Of a DNA stretch of 64,000 nt, positions 1,178-60,762 are shown one piece after another. Position 1 is the stretch's first letter. The number at the start of each line of letters is the position of its first letter. A model generated the notes under the pieces. It saw only the letters and a program-made list of their open reading frames with translations. It searched no databases and was not told the origin of the DNA. The stretch covers positions 4,363 to 68,362 of the forward strand of contig JAPOSH010000055.1 in NCBI GenBank assembly GCA_026709815.1, read 5' to 3'. Source of the DNA: a bacterium. Its GTDB lineage: Bacteria > Actinomycetota > Acidimicrobiia > Acidimicrobiales > Bin134. The position numbers were made by a program, and so were the translations under genes.

Positions 1178-1627
1178 TCAAGCACGCGAGTCGGCCGACG
1201 ACAGGTTGATGGCCAAGCACACCTCGGTGCCGTCGGGGCCGCTTCGGATGTCGACTCTGTCGGAGAGGACTCGCATCAGATAGATGCCCAACCCCCGCTC
1301 GAAGTTCAAACGGCTGGGATCGTCGGGCTCAGGCAGCACCTGGAGTTGATCGGGGTAGAAGCCGAAGCCCCGATCAACGACGTGGAACTCAAGGCGGTCG
1401 TCGGCCAGCGTGCAGCGAATCTGGATGGAATCGTCTCGGCACGCTCGAGCATGGGCTTCGATGGCGTTGGTCGTGGCTTCGGAGACGGCCACCTTGAAGT
1501 CTTCGATGCGCTCCGGGCTCAGGTTCTCGTCCATTTCGGCCGTCTCGGCCACCAAAGACCGAACCAATGAGAGGTATTCCGGGCGGGCGGGAATCTCAAA
1601 GTCCACACATGCGGGACCGGCGGTCAC
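1178..1627 (-). CDS. anti-sigma regulatory factor, RsbW/SpoIIAB-type serine kinase (HATPase_c)
   Basis: 149 aa with VSEATTNAIEAHA (N-box-like) and RGLGIYLMRVLSD (G-box-like). Its start overlaps the stop of the upstream STAS gene at 1624-1627. Confidence 0.8.
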   Translation of the reverse strand: MTAGPACVDFEIPARPEYLSLVRSLVAETAEMDENLSPERIEDFKVAVSEATTNAIEAHARACRDDSIQIRCTLADDRLEFHVVDRGFGFYPDQLQVLPEPDDPSRLNFERGLGIYLMRVLSDRVDIRSGPDGTEVCLAINLSSADSRA

Positions 1628-2010
1628 GAGCCGGCATCCTCGGTGGCCGCCGAGACCGACTTGAACACATCCACGGCGCGGTCGAGCCGCGTGAGCTCAA
1701 TCAGCTCGGCGAGACGAGAGCTGGCCGCCACCAGACGGATGTCGCCCCCAGCGCTGCGCACTCGCTTGGCCCCGCCCATGACCACGCCCAAACCGGTGGA
1801 GTCGATGAAATCCACCCCGGAGATGTCGATCACCACGTGTCGGGCCCCGGCACCGATCACACCGAGCAGACGCTGGCGAAACCGGGGGGCGGTGGCCATA
1901 TCGATCTCACCGGCCACCGTCAAGACTTGCCAATGCCCGCGGGCAGCAACGGTGACGTTGAAATCCACGAAATAGCAGACTATCTGGACGCCGGGTGCGT
2001 TTCCGAACAA
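1624..2010 (-). CDS. STAS-domain anti-sigma-factor antagonist (RsbV/SpoIIAA family)
   Basis: 128 aa: LTVAGEIDMATAPRFRQRL...VVIDISGVDFIDSTGLGVVMG is the classic STAS core with a phosphorylatable Ser in DST. The TTG start is uncertain. It sits 4 nt after the TadE-like gene. Confidence 0.85.
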   Translation of the reverse strand: MFGNAPGVQIVCYFVDFNVTVAARGHWQVLTVAGEIDMATAPRFRQRLLGVIGAGARHVVIDISGVDFIDSTGLGVVMGGAKRVRSAGGDIRLVAASSRLAELIELTRLDRAVDVFKSVSAATEDAGS

Positions 2011-2014
2011 CCAG

Positions 2015-2413
2015 TCACTCCACCCGCACAGTCAGCGTCTCCTCGATGGTCACCGCGGGAAACAGGCGGCCCACAAGGGGCACCGCGGGGTCGGGCCGGT
2101 AGCGCACCGTCACCTTAAGCAGCCCGCCGGTGGTGCGGCTGCCCGCGATCTCCACCTGTAATTTGTCCCGATCCAGGCCGGTGGCGGCCCACGCGGAGGC
2201 AGAAGCCGCTTGGGTGGAAGGCTCGACCGCAGCGGCCCGTGCGGCCTCGCGGACCGAGTGGACCACCAGAATGCGGTCGCGCGCCAATAGCCCTATCTGC
2301 ACCAGTGCCAGCACCACTGCCACGATCAGCGGGAGCACCAAAGCGGTCTCCACCGCAGCCTGTCCCCGGTCGCGGCGCCGCTGTCCGTCAGCGGGACGGT
2401 TCGGGGCATCCAC
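2015..2413 (-). CDS. TadE-like pilus assembly (minor pilin-like) protein
   Basis: 132 aa. The N-terminus RGQAAVETALVLPLIVAVVLALVQIG matches the TadE N-terminal pattern, and the gene is last in Tad locus 1. Confidence 0.75.
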   Translation of the reverse strand: MDAPNRPADGQRRRDRGQAAVETALVLPLIVAVVLALVQIGLLARDRILVVHSVREAARAAAVEPSTQAASASAWAATGLDRDKLQVEIAGSRTTGGLLKVTVRYRPDPAVPLVGRLFPAVTIEETLTVRVE

Positions 2414-2427
2414 CGGCTATCGCACCA

Positions 2428-2634
2428 TTAGGTGACGAGGCCGGTGATGTGTCGGAATACGGCGTCGAGCAGATTGGCGATGCGGTTGGTCCTGGTGACC
2501 CAGGACACCAGCAGCATGGCCACCGCGGCCGCCCCCAAGAGGATGAGGGCATACTCAGCGGTGGCCTGGCCGCGGTCGGAACGCCGGTGGGACAACCAGA
2601 GATGAAGGGCGAGCAGCAATCGAAGCATGAACAT
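2428..2634 (-). CDS. Flp-type pilin (actinobacterial TAEYA class)
   Basis: I trimmed the track ORF (2428..2766) to the ATG at 2634, which has GAGG 8 nt upstream. Product: MFMLRLLLALHLWLSHRRSDRG/QATAEYALILLGAAAVAMLLV, i.e. a G/xxTAEY processing-type motif plus a hydrophobic helix. Confidence 0.7.
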   Translation of the reverse strand: MFMLRLLLALHLWLSHRRSDRGQATAEYALILLGAAAVAMLLVSWVTRTNRIANLLDAVFRHITGLVT

Positions 2635-2690
2635 GGGACAAACCTCAAAGAGGTGGAAGCGGCGGGGGAAGGCGGGGGAAGAAGAAGTGC

Positions 2691-3395
2691 TCATCGGCTC
2701 AAGACGGTCAGCGTCTCGGCGAGGACCGGGGCCAAGGTGAGGAGGATGAAAGCCGGCAGAATGCAAGTGACCAGCGGCAGCAAAAGCCGCACCGGCAGAC
2801 GACGGGCCTGCTCCTCGGCGCGGCGGCGCCGCCAGAGGCGGCTGTCGGCGGCGAGCTGCGCCAGCGGCGACTCCAGCTCGGTGCCATAGCGGTCGGCGTC
2901 GATCAACACCCTGACCAGGGGGCGCAACGGCTCGCCCACCGACTCGGGAAGCGGTTCCAGCGCATCGCCGAGGCGAATTCCGGCCTGAGTCCGGCCGACA
3001 GCCTCTGACAAACCTTCTCCCACGGGGCCAACGAGACGCTCTCCCACTGCGGCGACCGCCAGATGCACGTTGAGCCCCGAAGAGACGGCCAAACGGAGCA
3101 GGTCAACTGCTTCCGGCAGCTCATCAATGATCTCTGCCTGTTTCCGGCGATGCAGTCGGGCCCGGCGACGGTGAGGCGTGATCCACAACAGGAGTCCAGC
3201 GGCCACGCCCAATGCCGGGTGGACGATCACCGCGACAACCGCGGCCAGAGTGAACCCGGCGGCCGGCGCAGTGAAGCGCGTCGGCGGCCGCGTCCCGGGC
3301 GGCGCCGGCGACCGGACTTGTCGTGGTCGCCGACTCCACCCCCACAGCACTACCACTGCGGTCCACAACAGCCCCAGAGAGATCGGCAGGGTCAT
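2691..3395 (-). CDS. type II secretion system F-family membrane protein (TadC-like)
   Basis: Start moved to the ATG at 3393-3395, directly next to the upstream stop (3397-3399). Polytopic membrane protein of T2SSF type, in Tad gene order. Confidence 0.75.
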   Translation of the reverse strand: MTLPISLGLLWTAVVVLWGWSRRPRQVRSPAPPGTRPPTRFTAPAAGFTLAAVVAVIVHPALGVAAGLLLWITPHRRRARLHRRKQAEIIDELPEAVDLLRLAVSSGLNVHLAVAAVGERLVGPVGEGLSEAVGRTQAGIRLGDALEPLPESVGEPLRPLVRVLIDADRYGTELESPLAQLAADSRLWRRRRAEEQARRLPVRLLLPLVTCILPAFILLTLAPVLAETLTVLSR

Positions 3396-3396
3396 G

Positions 3397-4179
3397 TCAA
3401 TGGCGGGAATTGACGATGTGGCGCATCCACAGTCCGCCGATGACGTCAAGGCTGAGTCCGCAGGTGAGAATCGCCAGACCCAGGCGGGTGGTGAACAGAA
3501 AACCAGCCGAATCGTCGCTCACGCCGGCCGACATGAGCATGAACCCCAGAGGCAGCGCCGCGATCATCATTGCGGAGACCCGGGCCTGAGCGGTGAGCGA
3601 GCGCACCTCCGCCTCCAGCGCGGCCCGGTCTCGCAGCGTGGCCGCCACGCCGTCGATGGCCCGAGCCCGGGCCCCGCCCGCGGTGGCGGCAAAGGCCATG
3701 GCCGCGGCGGCCAAACCGACGCCGCGGGCCGGACAACGACGGCACCAGCGATCGAACACATCGGCGCTGCGAAACCCGCGGCCCAGCTCTACGGCCAGCG
3801 GCGCCACCTCATGGCGCAGCGGGGCCGGAGCGCTGGACGCGGCGGACACCGTGGCCGGGCCAATCTGCGACCCGGTGCGAAGCCCTCGGGCAATGGCCTC
3901 CAAAAAGCCAGGAAGCTGGGCCTCGATGGCGCGCTGGCGGCGATGGCGGTTGCACCGCAGCGCCATCAGCGCGGCCCCGATGCCCGCCGCGGCACCGACG
4001 CCCCCGCCGATCACACCGCCTTGCATCGCACCGAAGCTTGCGCCCAAAAGCGCAACCGCCCCCAACCCCCTCCAGACTTTCACCAGGGCGATATCCAGAC
4101 CGGCATCGGCGGCCCTGGCGCCAAGCCGCCCAGACGCCGCGGCGCCGACAGATCTGCTGACAGCTCTGAGGCGGTTCAT
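3397..4179 (-). CDS. type II secretion system F-family membrane protein (TadB-like)
   Basis: Start set at MNRLRAV (ATG 4177-4179), giving an ATGA overlap with the CpaF stop at 4176-4178. Membrane protein in Tad gene order. Confidence 0.75.
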   Translation of the reverse strand: MNRLRAVSRSVGAAASGRLGARAADAGLDIALVKVWRGLGAVALLGASFGAMQGGVIGGGVGAAAGIGAALMALRCNRHRRQRAIEAQLPGFLEAIARGLRTGSQIGPATVSAASSAPAPLRHEVAPLAVELGRGFRSADVFDRWCRRCPARGVGLAAAAMAFAATAGGARARAIDGVAATLRDRAALEAEVRSLTAQARVSAMMIAALPLGFMLMSAGVSDDSAGFLFTTRLGLAILTCGLSLDVIGGLWMRHIVNSRH

Positions 4180-5201
4180 GGCTGAAGCCACCGGGGGTCG
4201 GGATCGGCCGCCCCCGGCACCCGGGGCTGGACCGTCGGCAATCGGTGCAACTGAAACTCGTCGGCAATCGGGCACAACCGCGGCCGGCGGCCGTCATCGC
4301 GGCCGTCGGAGCGGTCGATCACCGCCAGTGAGGTGATGCGACGCCGACCCTGAGCGCGGCGGGAAACATGGACCACCATGTCCACCGCGGCGGTGATCTG
4401 CTGCCGCACCGCCGTCAGGGGCACGGCCCCGCCGTCGAACAGGACCATGGTCTCCAAGCGGCTGATGGCGTCGGCCGGGCTGTTGGCATGGCAGGTGGAG
4501 AGCGATCCCTCATGGCCGGTGTTCATCGCTTGGAGCATGTCCAAGGTCTCCGCCCCTCGGACTTCTCCGACGATGATCCGGTCAGGCCTCATCCGCAGGG
4601 CGTTGCGCACCAGCTCGCGGATGGTGACCGGCGCCACCCCATCGACGTCGGCCGGGCGAGCTTCGAGACGCACAACATGATCGCTGGCCAGGGACAGTTC
4701 GGCGGCGTCCTCCACCGTCACCACCCGCTCACCGGGTGAGATCGAAGCCGCCAGAGCGTTCAGCAGGGTGGTTTTGCCCGCGCCCGCGCCGCCGGACACC
4801 ACCAGATTGCAGCGAGCCGACACCGCCCAGCGCAGGGCGGCCGCCACGCCGGGAGGGGCGAACTCCTCCAAGGAAACCAGGCGGACAGAGAAGCGGCGGA
4901 TGGTCACGTAGGGCCCGTCCACCGCCACCGGCGGCACCACTGCGTTCAGGCGGGAGCCGTCGGAGAGCCGCGCGTCCACCATCGGAGAGCTGCGGTCAAT
5001 GCGTCGACCGAGCGGGGCCACGGTCTGCTCAATGAGCAACTCGATGGTCTCGCGGTCCAGAATCGTGCTGGTGGCCTCCAAACGCCCGCGCCGTTCGACC
5101 CATACCGGCCCGGGGCCGTTCACCATGATCTCCGATACCGAGGGGTCGCCCAGGAAAGGCTCGATGGCCTCTTTGCCACCCCCGCCGCTGGTCCACACCA
5201 T
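4176..5201 (-). CDS. CpaF/TadA-family pilus secretion ATPase (short actinobacterial form)
   Basis: 341 aa with Walker [17 protein letters not shown], then [43 protein letters not shown]. Confidence 0.9.
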
Positions 5202-5204
5202 CGC

Positions 5205-5894
5205 TCACACCTCCTCGGTGAGCCGACTCAGGGCCCGAACGGCGCCCTTGGGCACCTGGGTTCGCAGCATCCCGGCGTCCACCGCCCGGGCGATGCCGGG
5301 GTCGACGGCGACGGTGGCGAGCACCGGAGCGCCGATGGCCCGCTCGCAGTCGGATCGAGTCAGGGCCCGGCCGGCCTCGGCCACCAGAACCACTCCGCTG
5401 GGCCGGACCGGGAGCGATACGGCGCGGCGCAAGGCCAGATAGCACGCCCGGGTGACCAGCACCGACCGGTCAGCCTCGGCGGCGAGGCACCAGCGAAGCT
5501 CGTCGCTTGACCCGCGGCCACAGGGATGCTCATCGCCTCTCAGCACCCCCGCATCCACCACCACATCGGCGCCGGCCGCCAGCCACTCGACGAAATCCCC
5601 CGCCCGCTGAGGACTCAGCGGGCCTCGGCCTCGGGGCAGCAGCGACAGATTGGGCGTCAGCTCCAGCAGCGCTCGCTCCAGCGAGCAGGGGGCGAGATCG
5701 CTGCGAAGCCACTCGCTCAAACCGCTCGGCGCCTCGGCACTGCCGAACACTGCGGCGAGATCGCCGCACAGATCGACGAGGAGCAACGGCCGATCGGGGT
5801 CTTGGGCGGCTTGCAGGCCAGCGAGGGCGGCCATCACCGTTGTGCCCGAACCCCCCTTGGTTGACCAGCAGGTCACCAGCATGGAAACCTCCAC
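5205..5894 (-). CDS. ParA/MinD-like protein with degenerate Walker A (Ssd/TadZ-like)
   Basis: 229 aa. N-terminus CWSTKGGSGTTVMAALAG resembles the deviant Walker A KGGxGKT but lacks the GK[ST] lysine. First gene of Tad locus 1. Confidence 0.7.
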   Translation of the reverse strand: MEVSMLVTCWSTKGGSGTTVMAALAGLQAAQDPDRPLLLVDLCGDLAAVFGSAEAPSGLSEWLRSDLAPCSLERALLELTPNLSLLPRGRGPLSPQRAGDFVEWLAAGADVVVDAGVLRGDEHPCGRGSSDELRWCLAAEADRSVLVTRACYLALRRAVSLPVRPSGVVLVAEAGRALTRSDCERAIGAPVLATVAVDPGIARAVDAGMLRTQVPKGAVRALSRLTEEV

Positions 5895-8021: not shown

Positions 8022-9260
8022 ATGAAAGTCGGCGACATCACCGCCCCCGAGCATGCGGCCAACGGAAAACCCCTCGACGGCCTTCGCATCCTGGCCATCG
8101 AGCAGATGCAGTCGCTCCCCTACGCCACCCAGCTCATGGCCCGCATGGGAGCGGAGGTGGTCAAAATCGAGCACCCGGTGCGAGGCGACCTGGGCCGGGG
8201 CTCGACCCCGGGCATCGCCGACCCTGGCGGCCGTCCGGTGGGCGGCACCTACCTGCGCAACAACCTCAACAAGCGCTCGGTGGGCATGGACTTGAAGCAT
8301 CCCAAGGCCGTCGACCTCCTCCGCCAGATGATTCCGAGCTATGACGTGCTGGCCGAGAACCTCAAGCCGGGGACCCTGGCCCGAAGCGGCTTGGGATATC
8401 AGGATTTGTCGCCGGTGCATCCCGGCCTCATCTACCTGTCGGTGTCGGGCTTCGGAAATCTCGGCGAGTCCCCCTACGGTCATTGGCCGGCCTACGCCCC
8501 CATTGCTGAGGCCATGGGCGGCCTCTACGCCATCAACCGGGCCGAAGGGGAGGACTTGAAGGTGTCTCCGGTGGGGGCGCTGGGCGACACCGGCTCCGGT
8601 CTCTTCGCCGTCATCGGGGTGCTCATGGCCCTGCGCCAGCGCGAGCGGCACGGCCACGGCCAGCATGTGGACATCGCCATGTTGGACGCCATGGTCGCCT
8701 TCGGCGACATCGTGCCCAACTACTGGTCGCTGGGCGCCGACCCCCGGACTCCCACTGCGATCATCAACGACGGCTTTCCCATCGACTCGGGCGAGCTGGT
8801 GATGCAGATCGGCCGAGAGCACCAGTTCGAGCGCCTGTGCCGCCTCATCGGCAGACCCGAATGGCTCGAAGACGAGCGGTTCTCGACCCGCGAGGGGTGG
8901 CGGGAGCATCTGGACGAGATCCGGGCCGCAGTCCGCTCCTGGGCGGGCGACCGCACCACCGTGCAAGCCGCCGACGACCTGGCCGCGGCGGGGCTGGCCG
9001 CGGCCCCGGTGTTCGAAGCCCCCGACGTGATCGGCGACCCCCACGTCGCCGCCCGCCACATGATGGTGGAGATCCCCCGCCCCGATGACGCCACGCCGGT
9101 GCTGACTCCCGGCAATCCGGTGAAAATGTCAGCGGTCAGCGAAGGCCCCGACACCCGGCCGGCATGGTTGGGTGAGCACACCGACGAGGTGCTCGGGGCC
9201 GACCTCGGCTTGGACGCCCAAGCGCTGGCCGAGCTCCGCGCCGACGGCGCCATCGGGTGA
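8022..9260 (+). CDS. family III CoA-transferase (CaiB/BaiF-like)
   Basis: 412 aa. LDGLRILAIEQMQSLPYATQLMARMGAEVVKIE and later ENLKPGTLARSGLGY are typical of the family. Confidence 0.85.
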   Translation: MKVGDITAPEHAANGKPLDGLRILAIEQMQSLPYATQLMARMGAEVVKIEHPVRGDLGRGSTPGIADPGGRPVGGTYLRNNLNKRSVGMDLKHPKAVDLLRQMIPSYDVLAENLKPGTLARSGLGYQDLSPVHPGLIYLSVSGFGNLGESPYGHWPAYAPIAEAMGGLYAINRAEGEDLKVSPVGALGDTGSGLFAVIGVLMALRQRERHGHGQHVDIAMLDAMVAFGDIVPNYWSLGADPRTPTAIINDGFPIDSGELVMQIGREHQFERLCRLIGRPEWLEDERFSTREGWREHLDEIRAAVRSWAGDRTTVQAADDLAAAGLAAAPVFEAPDVIGDPHVAARHMMVEIPRPDDATPVLTPGNPVKMSAVSEGPDTRPAWLGEHTDEVLGADLGLDAQALAELRADGAIG

Positions 9261-51579: not shown

Positions 51580-51626
51580 TATAATTTGAAATACATCTTG
51601 ATTTGCTGATTGGGATGTGGCAGATT
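51580..51626 (+). promoter_or_regulatory. AT-rich gap with sigma-70-like hexamers upstream of Tad operon 2
   Basis: TATAATTTGAAATACATCTTGATTTGCTGATTGGGATGTGGCAGATT is by far the most AT-rich stretch nearby. TTGATT (51598-51603), 17 nt, then CAGATT (51621-51626) is a possible -35/-10 pair. Purely pattern-based. Confidence 0.25.
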
Positions 51627-51649
51627 GAGGTCATCGGCACCGCTCGACG

Positions 51650-52372
51650 GTGCCCATCCCAACCTATCGGGCACAAACCATGCCGATGGCAAGCGAGGAT
51701 CGCCGGCGCCAGCTTCCCTGGGTGGCGCTTGGGCTGACCGTCACCCTCACCGCCGCGATCATCTTCTCCCTCTGGGCATCCTCGCTCAGCAACCGGACCG
51801 CAGTGGCCGCAGCCGGGCGTGACATCCCCGCCGGATCGCCCATCGAGATCGATGATCTGCGGGCCGTTGAAGTGGCCGGCGGGCAAGGTGCGGGATTCGT
51901 ATCCATGGCTGATCTAGAGGCGGTCGTCGGACGCACCGCCCGGTCGGCCATTCCCGAGGGGGCGATCCTTCACCCCGGGTTGCTGTCAACCAACTCGCCG
52001 ATCGAGATGGGCATGGCGGTGGTCGGCGCCGTTCTCCATCCCGGTGAATACCCGATTGTGGGCCTCAGCTCCGGCCAGAGGGTCGGTGTGGTTATCGGCG
52101 TCGGCGGATACGGGTTCGACCCGCGGGATTCCGCCAGCTGGGACGCAACCTCGAACACGTCGGCCCGGTCCCCCAAAGCCACGGTCGCTGAAGTGAGCGA
52201 GTTGTCGGATGCAAGCCGGGGGGCGCTCTTCGTGTCGCTCTTGGCCTCCGCAGACGAAGCCGTGCTCATTGGCAAAGCCGCCGCAGCAGACGAGTTGCGG
52301 CTGATCCTGCTGCCTGGAGAACCTCACCGGGCCAACAGAGCGCCTGAGGCAGTGGCTAGAGCAGGCCAATGA
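51650..52372 (+). CDS. SAF-domain protein (CpaB/RcpC-like pilus assembly protein)
   Basis: N-terminal TM (LPWVALGLTVTLTAAIIFSLW), then a SAF-like segment (AAAGRDIPAGSPIEIDDLRAVEV...ARSAIPEGAILHPGLL). The start is ambiguous (GTG 51650, ATG 51680 or ATG 51686). Confidence 0.65.
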   Translation: MPIPTYRAQTMPMASEDRRRQLPWVALGLTVTLTAAIIFSLWASSLSNRTAVAAAGRDIPAGSPIEIDDLRAVEVAGGQGAGFVSMADLEAVVGRTARSAIPEGAILHPGLLSTNSPIEMGMAVVGAVLHPGEYPIVGLSSGQRVGVVIGVGGYGFDPRDSASWDATSNTSARSPKATVAEVSELSDASRGALFVSLLASADEAVLIGKAAAADELRLILLPGEPHRANRAPEAVARAGQ

Positions 52373-53115
52373 GCATCATCGCCGTGGGGAGTGTGAAGGC
52401 CAGTCCTGGAGTCACCACTTTGTCGGTGGGGCTGGCAATGTCATGGGCCCCGGTCGCCGGGCGAGGCGCGGTCCTGATCGAAGCGGACGCAGACGGCGGT
52501 GTTCTAGCGGCGCGTTTCGGGCTAGCCCCAGCACCCTCGCTGATCGAACTCTCTGCAACGGCCCGACACGAGCTGACCACCGACCGCATCCAAACCAGCT
52601 GCCAGCTGCTGGCGGGCACATTGCCCACCCTCGTTGCCCCTGGGTGCGGCGAGACCACTACTGCGGTGCTCACCCCGCTGGCCCGACGGTTGGGCGAGGG
52701 GCTCGGGCACCTCGGCGAAATCGATGCCGTGGTGGACGTCGGACGCGTGCGGGTTGGCTCCCCCGCGGGCGATCTGGTCAAACGCTGCGACTTGCTGCTG
52801 CTCGTCGCCCGCCCCCGGTTTGACCAACTCGTCCCCCTGGTCCATCAGGCTCGCCGGGTGGTCGCCCAAAACATTCCAACGGCGCTGGTTTGCGTCGGCG
52901 ACCGGCCTTATCCCCCGACGGAGATGGCCAAGGCATCCCAACTCAACCTCTTGGGCGTGATCGCTCATGAGCCCAAGATGGCTCAGACCTTTGAGCGCGG
53001 CCTGTCAGGCGACCAGCGCCATCGCCGGTTGCTGCTGTGGAGAACCCTGGCTGAGCTGGTTCGCCGAATTCAATTCCGCTTGCCCGCCGGCGCCGGCGGA
53101 CGGGAGGCGGCGTGA
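52369..53115 (+). CDS. ParA/MinD-fold protein with degenerate P-loop (TadZ/Ssd-like)
   Basis: 248 aa. IIAVGSVKASPGVTTLSVGLA occupies the place of KGGxGKT, so both lysines and the glycine pair are lost. EADADGG and later VVDVGRV keep the ParA layout. ATGA overlap with the upstream gene. Confidence 0.6.
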   Translation: MSIIAVGSVKASPGVTTLSVGLAMSWAPVAGRGAVLIEADADGGVLAARFGLAPAPSLIELSATARHELTTDRIQTSCQLLAGTLPTLVAPGCGETTTAVLTPLARRLGEGLGHLGEIDAVVDVGRVRVGSPAGDLVKRCDLLLLVARPRFDQLVPLVHQARRVVAQNIPTALVCVGDRPYPPTEMAKASQLNLLGVIAHEPKMAQTFERGLSGDQRHRRLLLWRTLAELVRRIQFRLPAGAGGREAA

Positions 53116-54392
53116 TGGCTTGTCCGGTGGTGAACCGAGTGCTGAATATGGTCACCCAAAGACTCGAGCAGGCCGAGACCGGCCAACCCGGGAGCCGACT
53201 CGAACAGAAGGCCTTAGCAGGGCAATTCCTCCTCGAGGCTCTCGATGTCATAGCCACCGAAAGAACCAGAGCGTTTCTCCCTCCGATAGACAGCGACGAA
53301 GAGCTGCGAATCACCGACGAGGTATTGGCCATCTTGTTCGGATTGGGGCCGCTAGAGCGATTGCTAGCCGACGAGTCCGTTGAGAACATAAACATGAACG
53401 GCTGTGACACGGTTTGGGTTCACCATGCTGATGGCACCAAACGCAAAGTCGATCCGCTCGTTGAATCAGATGATGAGTTGATCGCCCTCATACGCAAAGC
53501 AGCTGCTCATTTGGGTCGCAACGAACGGCGTTTTGACATCGCCAATCCGTTCCTAGATCTGCGACTACTGGATGGATCTCGCCTCAACGCAATCATGGAA
53601 GTATCCGAACGACCAGCAGTCTCCATCCGCCGCCATCGGCATCAGCGGGTCACCTTGGACAACCTCCACGATCTCGGCACCATAGACGGTTGTCTCCGTG
53701 GTTTTTTAGAGGCAGTGGTAAAAGCTCGAATGAGCATCATCGTATGCGGAGGGACGAACGCCGGAAAAACAACCCTCCTGCGGGCGCTTCTGAATGCTTG
53801 TGACCCGAACGAGCGGCTGATTACAATTGAAGATCGGTTAGAGCTATACCTGACTGCTGACAAACCGCGGCACCACGATGTAATCGAACTAGAAACTCGC
53901 ACCGCCAACATTGAGGGAACCGGCGAGATAACCATGCAGCAGCTGGTGCGAAACGCTCTGGCTATGTCACCGGACCGACTCATTGTAGGAGAAGTGCGAG
54001 GCGCTGAAGTCGTGGACATGCTCGCGGCGCTGTCAACCGGAAATGACGGATCGATGTGTACCATTCATGCCAACTCCTCCCAAGCAGCGTTCAGCAAGAT
54101 CGCCACTTACGCCTTGCGATCAACAGAGCGCATCCCTATTGAAGCCATCAACCGCATGATCGCGGAGAGTATCAACTTCGTAACCCACATAGTCAAAGAC
54201 CATCTGGGCCACCGCCGTGTGGTCTCAGTGCGAGAAGTTACGGGAAACCGGGCTGGAGAAGTGAGCAGTGTCGAAGTGTTCGCCGCCGAGAGATCACCTA
54301 AAAACTCTGGATTGCAACCCTGCACTCGAGATCGGTTGATCAATGTGGGATTCGACCCCGCGTCTCCAATGATGAAAGATGACGTAAAATGA
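53112..54392 (+). CDS. CpaF/TadA-family secretion ATPase (long form)
   Basis: 426 aa. VENINMNGCDTVWVHH, Walker [64 protein letters not shown] overlap with the upstream stop. Confidence 0.9.
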   Translation: MMACPVVNRVLNMVTQRLEQAETGQPGSRLEQKALAGQFLLEALDVIATERTRAFLPPIDSDEELRITDEVLAILFGLGPLERLLADESVENINMNGCDTVWVHHADGTKRKVDPLVESDDELIALIRKAAAHLGRNERRFDIANPFLDLRLLDGSRLNAIMEVSERPAVSIRRHRHQRVTLDNLHDLGTIDGCLRGFLEAVVKARMSIIVCGGTNAGKTTLLRALLNACDPNERLITIEDRLELYLTADKPRHHDVIELETRTANIEGTGEITMQQLVRNALAMSPDRLIVGEVRGAEVVDMLAALSTGNDGSMCTIHANSSQAAFSKIATYALRSTERIPIEAINRMIAESINFVTHIVKDHLGHRRVVSVREVTGNRAGEVSSVEVFAAERSPKNSGLQPCTRDRLINVGFDPASPMMKDDVK

Positions 54393-55261
54393 CTATGTTG
54401 GTGGGAGCGCTGCTCGGTACCGCAATGGGCTGCGGTGCCTTTGGTGCCCTCATAGGCTGGCGCGGTGTACCGCAGAGATCGGAAGTCCGCTCGCTAGGAA
54501 CCCGAACGCAACGACAACAACACGCCATTGCACCAGTGCTTCGCCCGATTGCAGCAATTGCCAGCGCCGCGGTCGCAATAGGGGCAACTGGGTGGCCCGT
54601 TGCCGGGTTCATTGCGGGCATAGCCGGATTCGCGATGCCGACGGCATTCAAAGCCAAGATGGACCGCAACCGAGAAATAGATCGCATGACGGCTCTGGCT
54701 ACCTGGATAGAAATGGTGCGAGATACCGCCAGCGCGACATCAGGATTGATTGAGGCGCTGAAAACAACAGCGGTGTCGGCGCCAACTGTCGTGCGCGTTC
54801 CTGTACGACAGCTTGCTGCCCGAGCAGAACGGGAATCCCTGCCAAAGGCATTAGCAAAGTTCGCCGAGGAGATGGACCATGCAGTTGCTGACTCCATTGT
54901 GGCAACTCTTGGGCTTGCAGCCGCTAATCAGATCGGCTCATTACAAGAACATTTGGCTGAAATTGCCGAGAGCACTCGCCAAGAGGTTTCGATGCGCCTG
55001 CGAATAGAAACCTCCCGAGCTCGTCAATTCACTTCTGCCCGTTTCATCGCAAGCATTGTGGCAATATTCTCCGCGGGAATGGTATTATTTAGCAGACCAT
55101 ACTTGTCACCATTTGATACCCTATTGGGGCAGGTTATTCTTGCAATTATCGGCGGTCTTTTTCTCGGATCGGGAATTGCTCTCGTAAGAATGAGTCGTTT
55201 CAACAGTCCGCCTCGTATTCTCAATCTAACCGGCACTCCGATCACCATCGATGAACGATAA
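54389..55261 (+). CDS. type II secretion system F-family membrane protein (TadB-like)
   Basis: 290 aa with N- and C-terminal TM blocks flanking a cytoplasmic helical domain. ATGA overlap with the ATPase gene, in Tad gene order. Confidence 0.7.
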   Translation: MTMLVGALLGTAMGCGAFGALIGWRGVPQRSEVRSLGTRTQRQQHAIAPVLRPIAAIASAAVAIGATGWPVAGFIAGIAGFAMPTAFKAKMDRNREIDRMTALATWIEMVRDTASATSGLIEALKTTAVSAPTVVRVPVRQLAARAERESLPKALAKFAEEMDHAVADSIVATLGLAAANQIGSLQEHLAEIAESTRQEVSMRLRIETSRARQFTSARFIASIVAIFSAGMVLFSRPYLSPFDTLLGQVILAIIGGLFLGSGIALVRMSRFNSPPRILNLTGTPITIDER

Positions 55262-55263
55262 CA

Positions 55264-56142
55264 ATGATCATTGGCCTCGCTCTTGGAACAGTCATAGGGG
55301 TCGGACTCGCTGTTGCTTTCTGGGGATTCTTTCCCCCGCGAAAGCCATTGAACATCCGACTCAATGAACTCGAACAGTTTGATGACAGCCATAATTCAAA
55401 AAGCATACTACGCCATCGTCTTGGCTCAGTAGCTGCAAAGCTCTCCTGGCATGGAGGGTCGCGCCGTCACCGAGTAGAACGCGACCTGAGGATTGTAGGT
55501 CAAAGCGCTGAAGAGATGGCCGTGACCAAGCTGGTTATGTTGCTGTTAGGCGTAGGATTGCCTATTGGAGTGTGGATCATCTCATGGCTTGGTCATGTAT
55601 GGATCTCCCCCACACTCGTGGCAACAGCATCTCTCTTAACAGGAGGATTACTTTTTGTTGTGCCCGATTTATCATTGCGCGAAAGAGCTCGAAATCGACA
55701 CCGTGAACTGCTTCAGCAGATTAGTGTATACTTGGATTTAGTGAGCCTCCATCTAGCGGGAGGTGCAGGATTAGATCGAGCGCTAGAAGAGTCAGCTGCA
55801 CAGGGAATGGCATGGGGTTTTGTAGAATTCAAACGAGTACTTGCACAAGCAAAGTTGACCAATGAGTCTCCATGGACTGCATTTGAAAAACTAGGACAAG
55901 AGCTTGGCTCTCCTGAACTTGAAGAACTGGGCTCATGGCTCTTTCTAGCCGGATACTCTGGATCGCGAGTGCGATCCTCTCTGCAAATCAAAGCTCGAGG
56001 ATTGCGAGAGCGAGCTCTGCACGAGGCTGAGACTCGAGCTCAACAAGCTACGGAACGCATGTCGCTGCCAGTGGTGCTCATGTTCTCAGGCTTTCTCGGA
56101 CTGATCGGCTATCCAGCCTTGGCTGCGCTTACTAGCGCATGA
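55264..56142 (+). CDS. type II secretion system F-family membrane protein (TadC-like)
   Basis: 292 aa with the same architecture (LPVVLMFSGFLGLIGYPALA at the C-terminus). Starts 2 nt after the TadB-like stop. Confidence 0.7.
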   Translation: MIIGLALGTVIGVGLAVAFWGFFPPRKPLNIRLNELEQFDDSHNSKSILRHRLGSVAAKLSWHGGSRRHRVERDLRIVGQSAEEMAVTKLVMLLLGVGLPIGVWIISWLGHVWISPTLVATASLLTGGLLFVVPDLSLRERARNRHRELLQQISVYLDLVSLHLAGGAGLDRALEESAAQGMAWGFVEFKRVLAQAKLTNESPWTAFEKLGQELGSPELEELGSWLFLAGYSGSRVRSSLQIKARGLRERALHEAETRAQQATERMSLPVVLMFSGFLGLIGYPALAALTSA

Positions 56143-56185
56143 GTAAGACCCCGCTTACCCCTTCTCAACATATAAGGAGACAGAA

Positions 56186-56386
56186 ATGAAAACAGGAATC
56201 AAGCTCTACTTATTGGTATCCACAGCGAAAAACGCGCTCGAAAAACGAATTCGCGCGGCTTGGAAATGTGAGCAGGGTGATGTGACGTCAACGGTGATCA
56301 TGATTGCTGTCCTCGTTGCCGCCGCAGTGGCAGCCGGCGTGGTCATCACTAATTACATATCTGGCCAAACCAGCAAGATCAGCTGA
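56186..56386 (+). CDS. pilin-like small protein (atypical Flp-class prepilin)
   Basis: 66 aa: MKTGIKLYLLVSTAKNALEKRIRAAWKCEQG/DVTSTVIMIAVLVAAAVAAGVVITNYISGQTSKIS. AAGGAGA lies 8 nt before the ATG. The gene occupies the flp position, but the usual xxxEY after the Gly is absent. Confidence 0.5.
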   Translation: MKTGIKLYLLVSTAKNALEKRIRAAWKCEQGDVTSTVIMIAVLVAAAVAAGVVITNYISGQTSKIS

Positions 56387-56403
56387 GCGAGCCTGATCAA
56401 AGC

Positions 56404-56781
56404 ATGAAACGCGAGCGTGGAGAAGTGACCACCACCGTCTTGGCCGTTCCCATTGCCATGTTCCTGATCTTTATCACTATCCAAGCTGCCTTAGTGTTTC
56501 ACGCCCGATCCGTGGTTGATGCTGCAGCTCAAAATGGTGCTCTAGCGGGCCAAAGTGAAATGGGAACCGAAGCCGCAGTGCATTCCGCCGTCTGGTCAAT
56601 AATAGGACCAAGCGAAAAAAATCTGCTATCGGACATGGAAATCGCCATTGAAACGAATCCAAGCCGCTTGTCAGTTACGGTGCATGCCACCGTCAAGTCG
56701 CTGATCCCTGGATTTGCTCCGAAAATCGCCTCTACTGCTGCCGGTCCTCGAGAGGTCTTCATCTCACGGAGCCGACGATGA
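56404..56781 (+). CDS. TadE-like protein
   Basis: 125 aa. ERGEVTTTVLAVPIAMFLIFITIQAALVF follows the TadE N-terminal pattern. Confidence 0.65.
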   Translation: MKRERGEVTTTVLAVPIAMFLIFITIQAALVFHARSVVDAAAQNGALAGQSEMGTEAAVHSAVWSIIGPSEKNLLSDMEIAIETNPSRLSVTVHATVKSLIPGFAPKIASTAAGPREVFISRSRR

Positions 56782-57233
56782 ACGACCAAACCCAGCCGTA
56801 CCGGCTAGTCGGTGAAACAGCAGAGCGTGGCAGCAGCATGGTCGAACTAACCCTCTTCACCCCGATTATGGTCGCTCTCCTGTTCTTTGTGATCGCGGCA
56901 GGCCGTGTGGGAACGATTCAAAGCAAATTAACTGCTGCTGCTAGCGGCGCTGCTCGCGCCGCCGCCCAGCACCAGTCAATCCCAACAGCCCAAGCAGCCG
57001 CCACGATGACGGCCGAAGCCTCCTTGCGTCATTCGGATCTAGGTTGTGCGAACGGGCCGAAAGTGTACTTCCAAGAGTTGAACCTGAGCCCTGGCGGCAA
57101 AGTCATGCTGCGAATCTCATGCGCCGTGCGACTATCGGATCTAGCCTTGCCCGGATTGCCCGGCAATTTGGAGGTGTCCGCGGCTTCGGTGTCAGTGGTG
57201 GACCGCTATCGAAGCGAAAGCGCTTCGCCATGA
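56778..57233 (+). CDS. TadE-like protein
   Basis: 151 aa. ERGSSMVELTLFTPIMVALLFFVIAAG. ATGA overlap with the upstream gene. Confidence 0.65.
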   Translation: MNDQTQPYRLVGETAERGSSMVELTLFTPIMVALLFFVIAAGRVGTIQSKLTAAASGAARAAAQHQSIPTAQAAATMTAEASLRHSDLGCANGPKVYFQELNLSPGGKVMLRISCAVRLSDLALPGLPGNLEVSAASVSVVDRYRSESASP

Positions 57234-57691
57234 CCAGCGTCATCGCACAAGAACGTTTCTGCAATGGCAAGACCACAAGAAACAGCCAGTGCGGCCAAGT
57301 CACCGTGGTGTTCGTAATCCTGGCCCCAGTCTTGATCATGCTCGGAGGACTGACATACGACGGCGCCCAACTTCTGAACGCCAGACGAGAGGCATTCACA
57401 TTGGCCGCCGAAGCAGCCAGAGCCGGGGCTCAGGCCATCTCTGTCGAAACTGTCTATCGGGACACAAACAGTATGAACGTGGATTTAGCGCGAGCTCGAA
57501 TCGCCACTTCAGAATTTCTCGGCCCGCAGGCTGACTGGTCCCTTTCCGTGACAAACGACACGGTCACAACCACTGTTTGGCACCGCCAGCCTCTTCAATT
57601 CTTGTCATTGTTCGGAATCGATTCGCGCCGAGTGGCCGGCACCGCCACCGCTCGCGCGGTCAGAGGAATACAGACCGGAGACGATCTATGA
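57230..57691 (+). CDS. TadG-like (Tad N-terminal domain) pilus assembly protein
   Basis: Internal ATG at 57230 of track ORF 57044..57691, forming ATGA with the upstream stop. GQVTVVFVILAPVLIMLGGLTYDGAQLLNARREAFTLAAEAARAGA resembles the TadG-type N-terminus. Confidence 0.55.
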   Translation: MTSVIAQERFCNGKTTRNSQCGQVTVVFVILAPVLIMLGGLTYDGAQLLNARREAFTLAAEAARAGAQAISVETVYRDTNSMNVDLARARIATSEFLGPQADWSLSVTNDTVTTTVWHRQPLQFLSLFGIDSRRVAGTATARAVRGIQTGDDL

Positions 57692-60600
57692 AGCCGAACG
57701 AAGAGCTGCGTACCGAAATCCTCCACGGATTGACCGCGGCCGGAGCGCTGTGCGGACTGCTGATGGGGGTGCCGCTTTTGCTGATCTTCGGTGTCGGTTG
57801 GCCACTACCCGCTGGAATGCCATCAGGAGCAGAAGTGCTCGCCGCCTTCAAGACCGGAACGATTTCTCCCTCCATGATCTTGAAACCTATCTCAGTGGTG
57901 GTGTGGCTCCTCTGGTTGCAGATGACATCTGGGGTGGGAGTCGAGCTTTGGGCACACCTGAACGGTCGAGTAGCCCCCCGAGTCTCTGTCATTCCCCTGT
58001 TCATGCAGCGCTTGTCAGCCCGACTCATGGGCACGATCCTCCTCGTCGCTCTCTCAGTCCAACAGCCCGCAGCAGCGCTGGACGATAACCAAGAACTTCT
58101 TTCCCCGCCCACGATGGAATTAGGCAGCGGTCAGTCACAGACCGTTGAATCCTCCGTCGAAAGCTCTCTCACAAACCCCGCTTCAAGAATCAACGATGTC
58201 ATGGCGCAAGATTTTCTTGATCCTGTTCCTCTTCTTCACACTGTGGAGCGGCGCGACAGCCTTCGAGCGCTAGCGGCGCGGTATTTGGGAGACCCAAACC
58301 GATGGACTGAAGTGTTCGTCCTCAACCAGGGACAAATCCAAGAGGACGGGGAATCGCTGACCGATCCAGCACGGCTTCGGCCCGGATGGAAACTGATCAT
58401 GCCCACCGATGCCCAGCTTCCGACTGCCGGGGCATCTGCTTTTGATGAGATGGCAAATAGCGCCGACGCGCCAGTCCCGGAAACAGAAGATCTAGCTGCC
58501 CACCAAGACTCTGTCAACGGATCCGAACATTTCACAGTCACTGTGCAAGAGGGGGATACTTTATGGGATCTGGCGGAACATCATCTCAAAGATCCCGAAA
58601 GGTGGGTCGAGATCCTCGACCACAACCAGGACGTTATCCAAGATCCCGACATGATCTTGCCGGGATGGCAGCTCCAAGTGCCAGCCCAGGACAGCAAACC
58701 CAGCATAGTTCAGCTACCAATCCAACCATGGCCTGAACCAGTCGACTCTGGTGTCTTGAGCCGAAACGTCCGAGACGCATCAGACGAAGGCCAACCCCTC
58801 CGCCGCGTCGAACCCCGCCAAATTGTCGCCCCCGTTGCGGCGTTCACAACCGCCAAGCCCACGGTGGTGGCTAACATCGCAGCACCCACCGCCGAAGCTC
58901 GCCCCGAAAGTCAGACAACGCCCAGCAAACAAACAATGCTGGCGATAGGAGGGCTCGGGGTGTTCGTCAGCAGCCTCAGCTGGGTGCTTGTCCGACTGCG
59001 GAAAACCCAGCGGCGGCGCTTGCCGAGCGGTCGAATGCCCGTCGCCCTTTCCCATGACGCTGCACACTTAGACCAGCAATTGCAGGCGGTCGCCGATTCC
59101 GACAACGCCCTCTTCTTGGACGCCGCTTTGAGAGTCATGTCCTCTCGAGTGGGCGGCAATACACCACCCGAGATCATCGGCGTGACCCATGACACCGAAA
59201 GCGCATCTGTTCATCTCAGACACCCGGCGGATGCACCCCCTGGATTTCATCCCAGCAATAACAGCATGACCTGGACTCTGCGAAGGGGTGCTGGGCTGGA
59301 GGCGCTACTGGCTGAGGCTGATGACGTGCCCGCTCCGTTGCCGGCATTGGCCGCAGCAGGAACAAGTGATGGCCGCGAATGCCTGTTGAACCTCGAGCAC
59401 ATGGTCGCGCTGAGCCTGCATGGGGACCCGGCGCTCGTTGCCGATTTCTGCATTGCCATCGCCACTCAGCTGGCCAGCAGCCACCTCGCTGACGATCTGA
59501 CAGTGATCTGTGTGGGTTTCGGCCAAGAGCTGACCGTGTTTGAAAGGGTGGAACATGTGCCCGATGTCGCCGCGGCTCTCGAGCGGCTCCAGCATCACAA
59601 GCGTCAACACCAAGCCTTGCTCGGGAACCATCCCCCTCTGGTCGCCAGCAGGATTGGCACTAGCGGCGACTATTCACAGCCGATCGTGGTGCTGGCCCCC
59701 GACAGGCTGGCCGAAGAAGAGGCTACTCAAGTTCTCGGCGCTTGCGTTTCGCCGGTCTGTGTCGTGGCCCACGGACTCCAAGGTGCCGCCTGGTCGGGGC
59801 ACTTCGACGGCGACAACCTTCTGCTGGAGCCGATCGGCCTGCGGCTGAAGGCCCACTGTCTGTCGGGTGCCGCTTCTGCCGCCATCGCCGAATTAGCGGA
59901 AAACACCGCGGGCGCAGAGCAGCTTTCACCGCGGTGGACAGGGCGCCAGCACAACTCCGACATTGACTTCCCATTAGGAGCGGAATACGACCACCGGGAA
60001 AATCCGGGCATTGAAGTGCGAGTGTTGGGTCCGGTGGAAGTGATCGGCGCCAAGCAGCCGTTTGCCTCCCGGCGAGCCCTCGACCTGGTGGCGTTCTTGG
60101 CTTTCCATCCCGAGGGAGCTGACCGAGATCAGATGAAAGCTCAGCTGTGGCCGCCAGACCATCCGCCATCCAATTCAACTCTCGCCAACACCATCAGCCG
60201 CGCCCGCAAAGCCTTGGGAGCAGACGACGACGGCAAGCCATATTTGCCGCGCGCGAACTCAAATGGGATATACCGACTGCACGAAGGAATTGAAACTGAT
60301 GTGGATAGGTTCAAGGCCTTGGTGGACGCCGCTCGCGACGAGCCCGGGCCGCGGGGTCAAAGTTGTCTCCGAACGGCTCTGAAACTCGTGCGGGGAACTC
60401 CGTTCACCGGCGGCGGCGGGGATATGTACCGATGGGCCGATTTCGGACTTCGCACCCAGATCGAATGCTTGGTGGACACTGCGGCCCATGAACTGGCCAG
60501 TAGATGCATCGACGCAGGCGATCTCTCCGGCGCAGCCAGCGCGGCCATGACCAGTCTTCGGCTGGTGGGGGTGTGCGAGCAGTGCTACCGATGGCGGCTT

Positions 60601-60762
60601 ATAGCCGCGGCCGACAACCCCACGGAGATGCGCAAGATCATGGCCGAGCTGGACAACTTGTTGAAACGGGAAAGTCCTCAGGGTGGCCCCGATGACCTGG
60701 TTCGCTCTAACCTGCTGGAACTCAGCCAGCAGCTGATGTCGGGCCACAAGACCTTCAACTAG
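57688..60762 (+). CDS. polytopic membrane protein with two LysM domains and a C-terminal SARP-type module (OmpR-like winged helix + BTAD)
   Basis: Start at the ATG at 57688 (ATGA with the upstream stop); 1024 aa. Three N-terminal hydrophobic helices. LysM-like repeats at 58237-58404 (HTVERRDSLRALAARYLGDPNRW...LRPGWKLIMP) and 58531-58683 (FTVTVQEGDTLWDLAEHHLKDPERW...ILPGWQLQVP). TM at 58936-58995. From 60010: IEVRVLGPVEV...SRRALDLVAFLAFHPEGADRDQMKAQLWP...YRL, followed by DVDRFKALV... helical repeats (BTAD-like). Confidence 0.8.
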   Translation: MKPNEELRTEILHGLTAAGALCGLLMGVPLLLIFGVGWPLPAGMPSGAEVLAAFKTGTISPSMILKPISVVVWLLWLQMTSGVGVELWAHLNGRVAPRVSVIPLFMQRLSARLMGTILLVALSVQQPAAALDDNQELLSPPTMELGSGQSQTVESSVESSLTNPASRINDVMAQDFLDPVPLLHTVERRDSLRALAARYLGDPNRWTEVFVLNQGQIQEDGESLTDPARLRPGWKLIMPTDAQLPTAGASAFDEMANSADAPVPETEDLAAHQDSVNGSEHFTVTVQEGDTLWDLAEHHLKDPERWVEILDHNQDVIQDPDMILPGWQLQVPAQDSKPSIVQLPIQPWPEPVDSGVLSRNVRDASDEGQPLRRVEPRQIVAPVAAFTTAKPTVVANIAAPTAEARPESQTTPSKQTMLAIGGLGVFVSSLSWVLVRLRKTQRRRLPSGRMPVALSHDAAHLDQQLQAVADSDNALFLDAALRVMSSRVGGNTPPEIIGVTHDTESASVHLRHPADAPPGFHPSNNSMTWTLRRGAGLEALLAEADDVPAPLPALAAAGTSDGRECLLNLEHMVALSLHGDPALVADFCIAIATQLASSHLADDLTVICVGFGQELTVFERVEHVPDVAAALERLQHHKRQHQALLGNHPPLVASRIGTSGDYSQPIVVLAPDRLAEEEATQVLGACVSPVCVVAHGLQGAAWSGHFDGDNLLLEPIGLRLKAHCLSGAASAAIAELAENTAGAEQLSPRWTGRQHNSDIDFPLGAEYDHRENPGIEVRVLGPVEVIGAKQPFASRRALDLVAFLAFHPEGADRDQMKAQLWPPDHPPSNSTLANTISRARKALGADDDGKPYLPRANSNGIYRLHEGIETDVDRFKALVDAARDEPGPRGQSCLRTALKLVRGTPFTGGGGDMYRWADFGLRTQIECLVDTAAHELASRCIDAGDLSGAASAAMTSLRLVGVCEQCYRWRLIAAADNPTEMRKIMAELDNLLKRESPQGGPDDLVRSNLLELSQQLMSGHKTFN

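Follow-up and report, generated by a model that had tools for sequence, protein, structure and literature searches.

The classes of SARPs (Streptomyces antibiotic regulatory proteins) described in a 2024 review are the small, the medium, the large and the SARP-LAL proteins, all of which carry the SARP module at their N-terminus and none of which is presented there as a membrane protein (PMC10972967). Every SARP in that review is a transcription regulator, nearly all of them activators, and DNA is bound upstream of the targets (PMC10972967). Here we analyse a gene that lies at positions 57688-60762, on the forward strand, of a 64,000-nucleotide stretch from a bacterium of the Acidimicrobiales (GenBank assembly GCA_026709815.1, contig JAPOSH010000055.1; this whole stretch is called the window below), as the last gene of an operon for a Tad (Flp) pilus. 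Its 1024-residue product combines four hydrophobic segments, two LysM repeats, an FtsK/EccC-like domain whose nucleotide-binding motifs are degenerate and, at the C-terminus, a SARP module. In Actinomycetota the protein is well predicted to belong, as a conserved accessory subunit, to the CpaB-type Tad (Flp) pilus cassette. As to what it might do, the reading that we favour, at a probability of roughly 0.45, is that of a wall-anchored, membrane-tethered regulator or hub that would work together with TadZ.

AfsR and EmbR (2fez) have the same fold of winged helix plus BTAD as the C-terminal module here, and the motifs LW..PP, (I/V)SRxRxAL and ALxLxRGxP are likewise shared. In described SARPs, however, the module is N-terminal, is paired with NB-ARC/TPR or FHA domains and belongs to biosynthetic clusters, whereas here it is C-terminal and membrane-tethered, is paired with an FtsK-type domain and belongs to a pilus operon in whose promoters no heptamer repeats were found. 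ToxR, TcpP and CadC share with it a membrane-held OmpR-type winged helix and an extracytoplasmic domain, but in these proteins the winged helix is N-terminal and is followed by one transmembrane segment and a periplasmic sensor; the layout here is not of the ToxR type, as there are four transmembrane segments, a 340-residue globular domain separates the membrane from a winged helix near the C-terminus, and BTAD and LysM are present as well. EccC/EssC, FtsK and TcpA have the same FtsK-type fold right after a transmembrane helix and a short helical stalk, the difference being that here there is a single such domain, no active ATPase domain after it, and a G-D turn of two to three residues in place of Walker A. 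Degenerate nucleotide-binding motifs are also found in the DUF domain of EccC. There are no type VII or conjugation genes near the LysM-SARP gene. Among pilus-associated proteins, TsaP is a LysM protein with a direct sequence match to the LysM of our protein, and the hubs FimV and HubP consist of LysM, a transmembrane segment and cytoplasmic TPR-like parts and recruit ParA/MinD-like ATPases. Outside LysM there is no homology to TsaP, FimV, HubP or the PodJ of Caulobacter Tad pili, and none of these has an FtsK-like or DNA-binding domain. The nearest published counterpart may be PAGK_2369 of a Cutibacterium acnes plasmid tad locus, which is listed as 'LysM, BTAD', follows three TadE-like genes and is labelled 'TadB' (PMC3666418); it has the same locus position, and its orthology is judged from domains and position. 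That table entry for the C. acnes plasmid gene is the one mention of the family that we found, and no functional study or mutant was found in the literature searched.

The gene starts with the ATG at 57688, in an ATGA that also holds the TGA stop of the TadG-like gene before it, and an identical protein (P0001) is present in a public metagenome-assembled genome. Its parts, in the order in which they are encoded, are as follows.

57688-60762, forward strand: gene for the LysM / FtsK-like / SARP membrane protein, an open reading frame of 1024 residues that starts in the ATGA overlap
57724-57792, forward strand: transmembrane segment TM1 (residues 13-35), hydropathy peak 2.28
57793-57810, forward strand: VGWPLP motif (residues 36-41) in the TM1-TM2 loop, which is predicted to be outside; invariant in our alignment A4 and nearly so in alignment A1
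57871-57945, forward strand: TM2 (residues 62-86), from hydropathy, with W73 and W76 invariant and E86 nearly invariant in the alignment
58006-58080, forward strand: TM3 (residues 107-131), from hydropathy, with a loop rich in K/R before it and an acidic stretch after it
58237-58404, forward strand: LysM repeat 1 (residues 184-239), from Pfam and NCBIfam, 72% mean identity in the close clade
58531-58683, forward strand: LysM repeat 2 (residues 282-332), the best Pfam LysM stretch, with sequence matches in the PDB to TsaP and the LysM of 6ve2
58933-58998, forward strand: TM4 (residues 416-437), from hydropathy, followed by RLRKTQRRR
59053-59919, forward strand: stalk helices and FtsK/EccC-like domain with degenerate nucleotide-binding motifs (residues ~456-744), from an AlphaFold (AF2) model, Foldseek and profile matches
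59407-59430, forward strand: position of the lost P-loop (residues 574-581, VALSLHGD), from the secondary structure of the model
60013-60297, forward strand: OmpR/ToxR-type winged helix (residues 776-870), from Trans_reg_C, matches to CadC/ToxR profiles and the fold of AfsR and EmbR
60172-60219, forward strand: presumed recognition helix STLANTISRARKALG (residues 829-844), from the alignments
60298-60759, forward strand: BTAD (TPR-like, residues 871-1024) with the motif ALxLVRGxPF, from the fold match, PF03704 in relatives and TPR profile matches

The four hydrophobic segments come from a Kyte-Doolittle analysis, and the charges around them are unevenly distributed: the loop of residues 87-111 has three K/R and no D/E, residues 132-160, after TM3, have no K/R and six D/E, and residues 437-460, after TM4, have six K/R. 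The positive-inside rule predicts a cytoplasmic N-terminus and a cytoplasmic TM2-TM3 loop and, because K/R and D/E are distributed in this way around the transmembrane segments, puts the LysM pair with its acidic, proline-rich linkers outside and the last ~590 residues inside the cell. TM1 to TM3, with the VGWPLP loop and W73, W76 and E86, make up a conserved module that, like the LysM pair, is predicted to face the wall. The LysM assignment is well above threshold, with a Pfam LysM score of 39.4 bits (E 5.8e-10; cut-off 20.9) over two stretches, the best of which is residues 285-332, and the NCBIfam LysM models concur; the location of the domain outside the membrane is predicted from the charges, and binding to peptidoglycan is putative. 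A preliminary description, made by eye from this DNA, had proposed two LysM-like repeats, the second of which coincides with the best Pfam stretch, and four hydrophobic helices, the last of them at 58936-58995 (residues 417-436), all of which Kyte-Doolittle recovers. The open reading frame and the ATGA overlap that it gave hold in the sequence, and its orientation of the protein, with LysM toward the wall and the DNA-binding module in the cytoplasm, agrees with the charge counts.

The C-terminal module, from 60010 (residue 775) onward, is visible in the query by sequence only below threshold, as Trans_reg_C scores 16.5 bits against the required 26.2 in Pfam and BTAD of Pfam has no match in the query itself. 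Among 46 aligned members of the family, however, BTAD (PF03704) was matched in 24 and Trans_reg_C in 19, and the predicted structure is clear: an AlphaFold model of residues 775-1024 (predicted local distance difference test, pLDDT, 90.9) is matched by Foldseek over the whole 250 residues to the SARP domain of AfsR (8k60, 8hvr; E 1e-7, template-modelling score 0.67, 22-24% identity), with EmbR and then generic TPR proteins as the next matches. The earlier proposal of an OmpR-type winged helix plus BTAD is thus borne out by the predicted fold and by the Pfam matches of relatives, although not by Pfam in the query, which stays below its thresholds; judged by Pfam in isolation, the condition set beforehand for the C-terminal region would be a borderline case. 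Searches of the PDB by sequence did not reach AfsR or EmbR, which were found by structure comparison alone; what they found for the winged helix were CadC (E 1e-4) and ToxR (0.08) with the family profile, and CadC (0.11) and TcpP (2.3) with the single sequence. The patterns LW..PP...ISRxRKAL and ALxLVRGxPF, which we take to be typical of SARPs, are preserved, and residues 829-844 are presumably the recognition helix, by analogy with the helix pattern of PhoB, CadC and ToxR. Within the module W821, R840, L843 and G903 are invariant or nearly so; R840 and L843 are invariant in alignments A4 and A5 and at least 90% conserved in A1, and R838 is invariant only in A5, which has nine sequences. In the close clade the winged helix, with 71% mean identity, is one of the two best conserved modules, the other being LysM1 (72%). 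The recognition helix shifts between clades, from STLANTISRARKALG here to DDVRDALVDRLREWLG in Streptomyces, with R840, L843 and G844 kept. By predicted fold and the Pfam matches of relatives, an OmpR-type winged helix is directly followed by BTAD, as in a SARP, but the module is not N-terminal in a soluble protein: it occupies residues 776-1024, behind four transmembrane segments. By fold and motifs the protein is therefore a SARP, one that stands outside the layout common to the described classes, and its SARP module looks functional.

No Pfam family covers the central domain, which the preliminary description had tentatively likened to a P-loop-less FtsK/EccC-like fold. An AlphaFold model of residues 437-790, built from an alignment (A2) of 83 family members, has a mean pLDDT of 87, and the top 36 matches of Foldseek against the PDB are only to the FtsK motor, the coupling protein TcpA and EccC/EssC, including the DUF domain of EccC5 (E 4e-7 to 3e-3, template-modelling scores 0.30-0.41). 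The family sequence profile reaches EccC independently (4nh0, E 7e-5; 8rin, E 0.036). At the site where the P-loop is expected, the model has the strand VALSL, then a turn of two to three residues (HGD) and then a helix; the loop that replaces Walker A reads SLxG-D in family members, none of the 46 aligned members has GK[ST] at this site, and in the same 46 no acidic pair is conserved after the VVL strand, where Walker B would be. The domain therefore has the FtsK-type fold of FtsK/HerA-type ATPases without their P-loop, as that first impression had it: the Walker A pattern GxxGxGK[ST] is gone, the Walker B pattern hhhhDE is not conserved, and canonical ATP binding has probably been lost. In the close clade this is the least conserved folded part of the protein, with 54% mean identity.

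The domain invites the comparison with DNA-handling devices such as FtsK, SpoIIIE and the TraB of Streptomyces, and the protein, with its membrane anchor, a ring of FtsK-like domains and a DNA-binding winged helix, might be imagined to hold or guide DNA at the Tad machine for uptake or transfer. The order of transmembrane segments, FtsK-like domain and C-terminal winged helix mirrors that of FtsK and TraB, and many copies of the gene are on actinobacterial plasmids. Moreover, in Micrococcus luteus transformation requires Tad pili, and Mlut_07490, an active FtsK/SpoIIIE gene beside tad-1, affects transformation (PMC8467076). Mlut_07490, however, is not the same protein and has its GTTGSGKS motif intact, the winged helix here belongs to the OmpR/SARP type, is accompanied by a BTAD and is not the gamma domain of FtsK, and a canonical ATP-driven motor is unlikely because none of the 46 aligned members has Walker A or a conserved acidic Walker B. 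We regard a role in DNA handling as very improbable.

Relatives are widespread. About 58 close ones, with 47-64% identity, are found in metagenome-assembled genomes of Acidimicrobiia, including the sponge-associated Candidatus Poriferisocius, and relatives of similar length with 25-30% identity occur in Streptomyces and other actinomycetes. A scan with query alignment A5 over one genome per GTDB species found a relative in at least 494 species-representative genomes, of genera that include Streptomyces, Arthrobacter, Cellulomonas, Nocardioides, Kribbella and Aeromicrobium and of orders that include Pseudonocardiales and Mycobacteriales; others are on 167 actinobacterial plasmids. The central domain alone recovers 943 representative clusters (50% identity, E up to 0.001), in which it is mostly near residues 350-800 of proteins of 900-1250 residues. 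Hidden Markov models were made from the alignment for the single modules: 68 of 81 loci match all six, and eight more match all except the short TM4/stalk model; of the remaining five, four (L019, L024, L035 and L063) are apparently cut at contig ends and one (L041) is without a match to BTAD only. For the neighbourhood of the gene we used the 75 fetched loci with at least 8 kb of upstream sequence: tadA, tadB and tadC are all in the flank in 62 of them, upstream and on the same strand in 61, and 71 have some tad gene. This co-conservation, which had been named beforehand as a condition for linking the gene to the pilus, extends from Acidimicrobiia to Streptomyces, Rhodococcus, Kribbella and Arthrobacter and to plasmids, and on pSCL3 of S. 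clavuligerus and a plasmid of Rhodococcus qingshengii the gene again follows TadG-like genes. As modules, synteny and the position of the central domain recur across many orders, the six-module architecture is, on the loci compared, old and stable.

In Streptomyces fungicidicus the gene is preceded by the pseudopilins and overlapped at its end by a prepilin peptidase gene; its earlier designation as the terminal gene of the pilus operon is thus right for the operon here but not for Streptomyces, where the prepilin peptidase comes next. Thirteen Streptomyces loci (L040, L042, L052, L054, L057, L060, L068-L070, L072, L074, L077 and L081) have 3.5-9.7 kb of other genes between the TadG-like and the LysM-SARP genes, and the prepilin peptidase gene comes after the latter. 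At L048 and L049 there is no tad gene at a distance of up to 10 kb.

Relatives are named in databases either 'LysM...' or 'BTAD domain-containing putative transcriptional regulator', each name covering single domains only, and the second would suit an ordinary SARP of a secondary-metabolite cluster that is beside a tad operon by chance, or a gene fusion or assembly artefact. We consider this ruled out by the occurrence of the same architecture in 76 of the 81 loci, from many orders, together with the synteny, the 943 clusters and the absence of biosynthetic genes near the LysM-SARP gene.

Two loci in complete Acidimicrobiales genomes, L015 (OZ220474.1) and L018 (NZ_OZ242338.1), bear on function. 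In both (9008-13012 in L015, 9210-12979 in L018) cpaB and tadA to tadG are gone, and what is left is a TadZ-like gene (70-73% identical) adjacent to a full-length LysM-SARP gene in which all modules are retained; in L015 the conserved promoter, with the first 30 codons of cpaB, still precedes the pair. The nearest locus to L015 is L016 (62.9%), those nearest to L018 are L011 (70.9%), L012 and L021, and all of these have the full operon; L015 and L018 are only 58% identical to each other. Because each is nearest to different full-operon loci, the two losses of the pilus genes look independent, on a neighbour-joining tree without support values. The co-retention suggests that TadZ and the LysM-SARP protein are a functional unit that does not strictly need neighbouring pilus genes and, as the pair was kept after the loss, that it has a function beyond the pilus itself.

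The alternative that deserves most discussion is a purely structural or positioning subunit, in the manner of FimV, HubP, TsaP or PodJ, with a winged helix that no longer binds DNA: the LysM pair would anchor the Gram-positive machine in the thick peptidoglycan, and the FtsK-like domain and the TPR-like BTAD would be interaction surfaces that recruit TadZ and TadA. It accounts well for the place of the gene, which throughout the phylum and on plasmids is fixed behind the pseudopilins with stop and start codons overlapping, and the LysM of our protein matches that of TsaP, from the secretin complex of the type IVa pilus; TadZ, furthermore, is an ATPase-like protein of the ParA/MinD kind that FimV and HubP recruit. 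The lack of a SARP box in the operon promoters and the variation of the recognition helix between clades agree with it too. Against this, the SARP module is complete in essentially every full-length member and its winged helix is among the best conserved parts in the clade, we know of no SARP domain without DNA binding, and a gene that stays intact after the loss of the pilus genes in two lineages is not expected of a dedicated machine part. We hold a purely structural role to be a serious rival but less likely, and favour a regulator because the SARP module is conserved, the closest winged-helix sequences are those of CadC, ToxR and TcpP, and known SARPs regulate transcription.

Several observations weigh against such a regulator. 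A scripted scan for pairs of heptamers at a spacing of 10-12 or 21-23 nt, over 21 close-clade hpt-cpaB spacers and eight Streptomyces regions upstream of cpaB, found no heptamer repeats at a conserved position, with at most two of 21 sequences in agreement. The cpaB promoters of both the Acidimicrobiia clade and Streptomyces have good -35 elements, and apart from the sigma-70-like promoter there is no binding-site-like conservation in either set of regions. As there are no conserved repeats, nothing points to an operon that is autoregulated in the classical SARP manner, and no DNA target of the SARP module was found in a scan that was confined to the operon promoters of two clades. The recognition helix of Streptomyces, DDVRDALVDRLREWLG, is rather acidic, and the helix is unconserved across clades. 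A fixed slot among translationally coupled structural genes suits a machine subunit better than a regulator. The topology is that given by hydropathy and the positive-inside rule alone, computed by hand; an interaction with TadZ we infer from co-retention only; and, although no clade-type TadA cluster from the L015 chromosome appeared among the relatives of TadA, a distant second tad locus is possible in either genome. The ToxR-like signalling from envelope to transcription that the preliminary description put forward is a plausible functional reading, but nothing in the present evidence supports it.

In the favoured reading of a tethered regulator or hub, the LysM pair would anchor the protein in the peptidoglycan beside the pilus machine. 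The FtsK-like domain might then be a nucleotide-independent platform for oligomerisation or docking, comparable to the membrane-proximal DUF domain of EccC, that would contact TadZ, which is ParA/MinD-like, and possibly also TadA. As the output, the SARP module would be a tethered transcription activator whose access to DNA and RNA polymerase may be set by the state of the envelope or of the machine. It is tempting to go one step further and to imagine a transcription factor built into the pilus machine, in which a ring of FtsK-like domains would be seated on TadZ or TadA, the LysM/transmembrane module would be the sensor, and pilus assembly, retraction load or the state of the peptidoglycan would switch the SARP module on or off. 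We think this stronger version improbable. If it were true, the Tad pili of Gram-positive actinobacteria would signal directly to gene expression, a kind of surface sensing, and the SARPs would have a fourth, membrane-embedded class whose regulon can outlive the pilus, as L015 and L018 would illustrate.

The gene is encoded in, and conserved with, a Tad operon, as seen from the ATGA overlap, the synteny and the plasmid copies. Upstream of it in the window, on the same strand, is a complete Tad cassette, which is preceded by tilS and hpt and consists of the following.

51586-51660, forward strand: operon promoter and 5' leader hairpin, from 21 aligned related loci
51650-52372, forward strand: cpaB/rcpC-like gene (SAF domain), the true start of which is probably the ATG at 51680 and not the GTG at 51650
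52369-53115, forward strand: TadZ/Ssd-like protein of the ParA/MinD type, retained with the LysM-SARP gene in L015 and L018
53112-54392, forward strand: tadA/cpaF ATPase (T2SSE, E 6.7e-39)
54389-55261, forward strand: tadB (T2SSF match)
55264-56142, forward strand: tadC (T2SSF match)
56186-56386, forward strand: Flp prepilin of 66 residues in which QG/DVTST precedes a hydrophobic helix; conserved in 20 related loci
56404-56781, forward strand: tadE (Pfam TadE and Tad matches, for this and the next two genes)
56778-57233, forward strand: tadE/F, overlapping its neighbours by four bases
57230-57691, forward strand: tadG-like gene, overlapping its neighbours by four bases

The promoter, in the hpt-cpaB spacer, is strongly conserved among the 21 related loci and sigma-70-like, with a -35 element TTGATT (51598-51603), a 17-nt spacer and a -10 element CAGATT (51621-51626). 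It is followed by the leader hairpin at 51636-51654, which reads GGCACCG-CTCGA-CGGTGCC here and GGAGC...GCTCC in relatives; three of its five pairs have compensatory changes, and Rfam has no match for the leader. The sequence ATGA can be read in the DNA at 57230-57233 (second tadE and tadG-like gene) and at 57688-57691 (tadG-like and LysM-SARP gene), and in the table of open reading frames cpaB and tadZ, tadZ and tadA, tadA and tadB, and tadE and the second tadE also share four bases, a chain of overlaps that suggests translational coupling along most of the cassette. The TadZ/Ssd-like protein has no Pfam match at E 0.01; its N-terminal KASPGVTT may be the deviant Walker A of ParA/MinD proteins. 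In that case NTPase motifs would be degenerate in two products of the cassette.

On the 3' side the LysM-SARP gene is followed by a thioredoxin-reductase-like gene and a gene for a PG_binding_1 protein, and a simple scan found neither a terminator nor a promoter downstream of it. The window has no paralogue of the gene. The G+C content of the tad cassette (52000-58000) is 0.53-0.62, compared with 0.63-0.69 in the remaining window, which hints at a foreign origin, though the position between hpt and the thioredoxin reductase gene is common to the clade. The tadC-flp spacer of related loci L004-L023 (at about 8600-8690) is mostly 85 nt long and has a conserved GC-hairpin element, TATCGGCG-N7-AACCGCCCC, before flp; that of the window is only 43 nt long and is without this element. 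A second, shorter Tad-like locus, with neither cpaB nor a LysM-SARP gene, is at 1178-5894 on the minus strand of the window.

5205-5894, minus strand: TadZ/BcsQ-like protein
4176-5201, minus strand: TadA
3397-4275, minus strand: TadB
2691-3449, minus strand: TadC
2015-2413, minus strand: TadE
1624-2010, minus strand: STAS anti-sigma antagonist, after TadE
1178-1627, minus strand: HATPase_c_2 anti-sigma kinase

To our knowledge, the Tad pili of Gram-positive actinobacteria are without a secretin. How such a machine crosses and is attached to the thick wall, and how it is positioned and regulated, is poorly known, and the LysM-SARP family is a candidate on each count. It is a very widespread family that combines domains in an unexpected way: it extends the SARPs past the soluble regulators of antibiotic clusters, and it brings to the components of type IV filament systems an FtsK/EccC-like domain that is unannotated and has degenerate nucleotide-binding motifs. 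Its carriers include Streptomyces, Rhodococcus, the colonisation-linked plasmids of Cutibacterium and the sponge-symbiont Acidimicrobiia, for all of which the family may be relevant.

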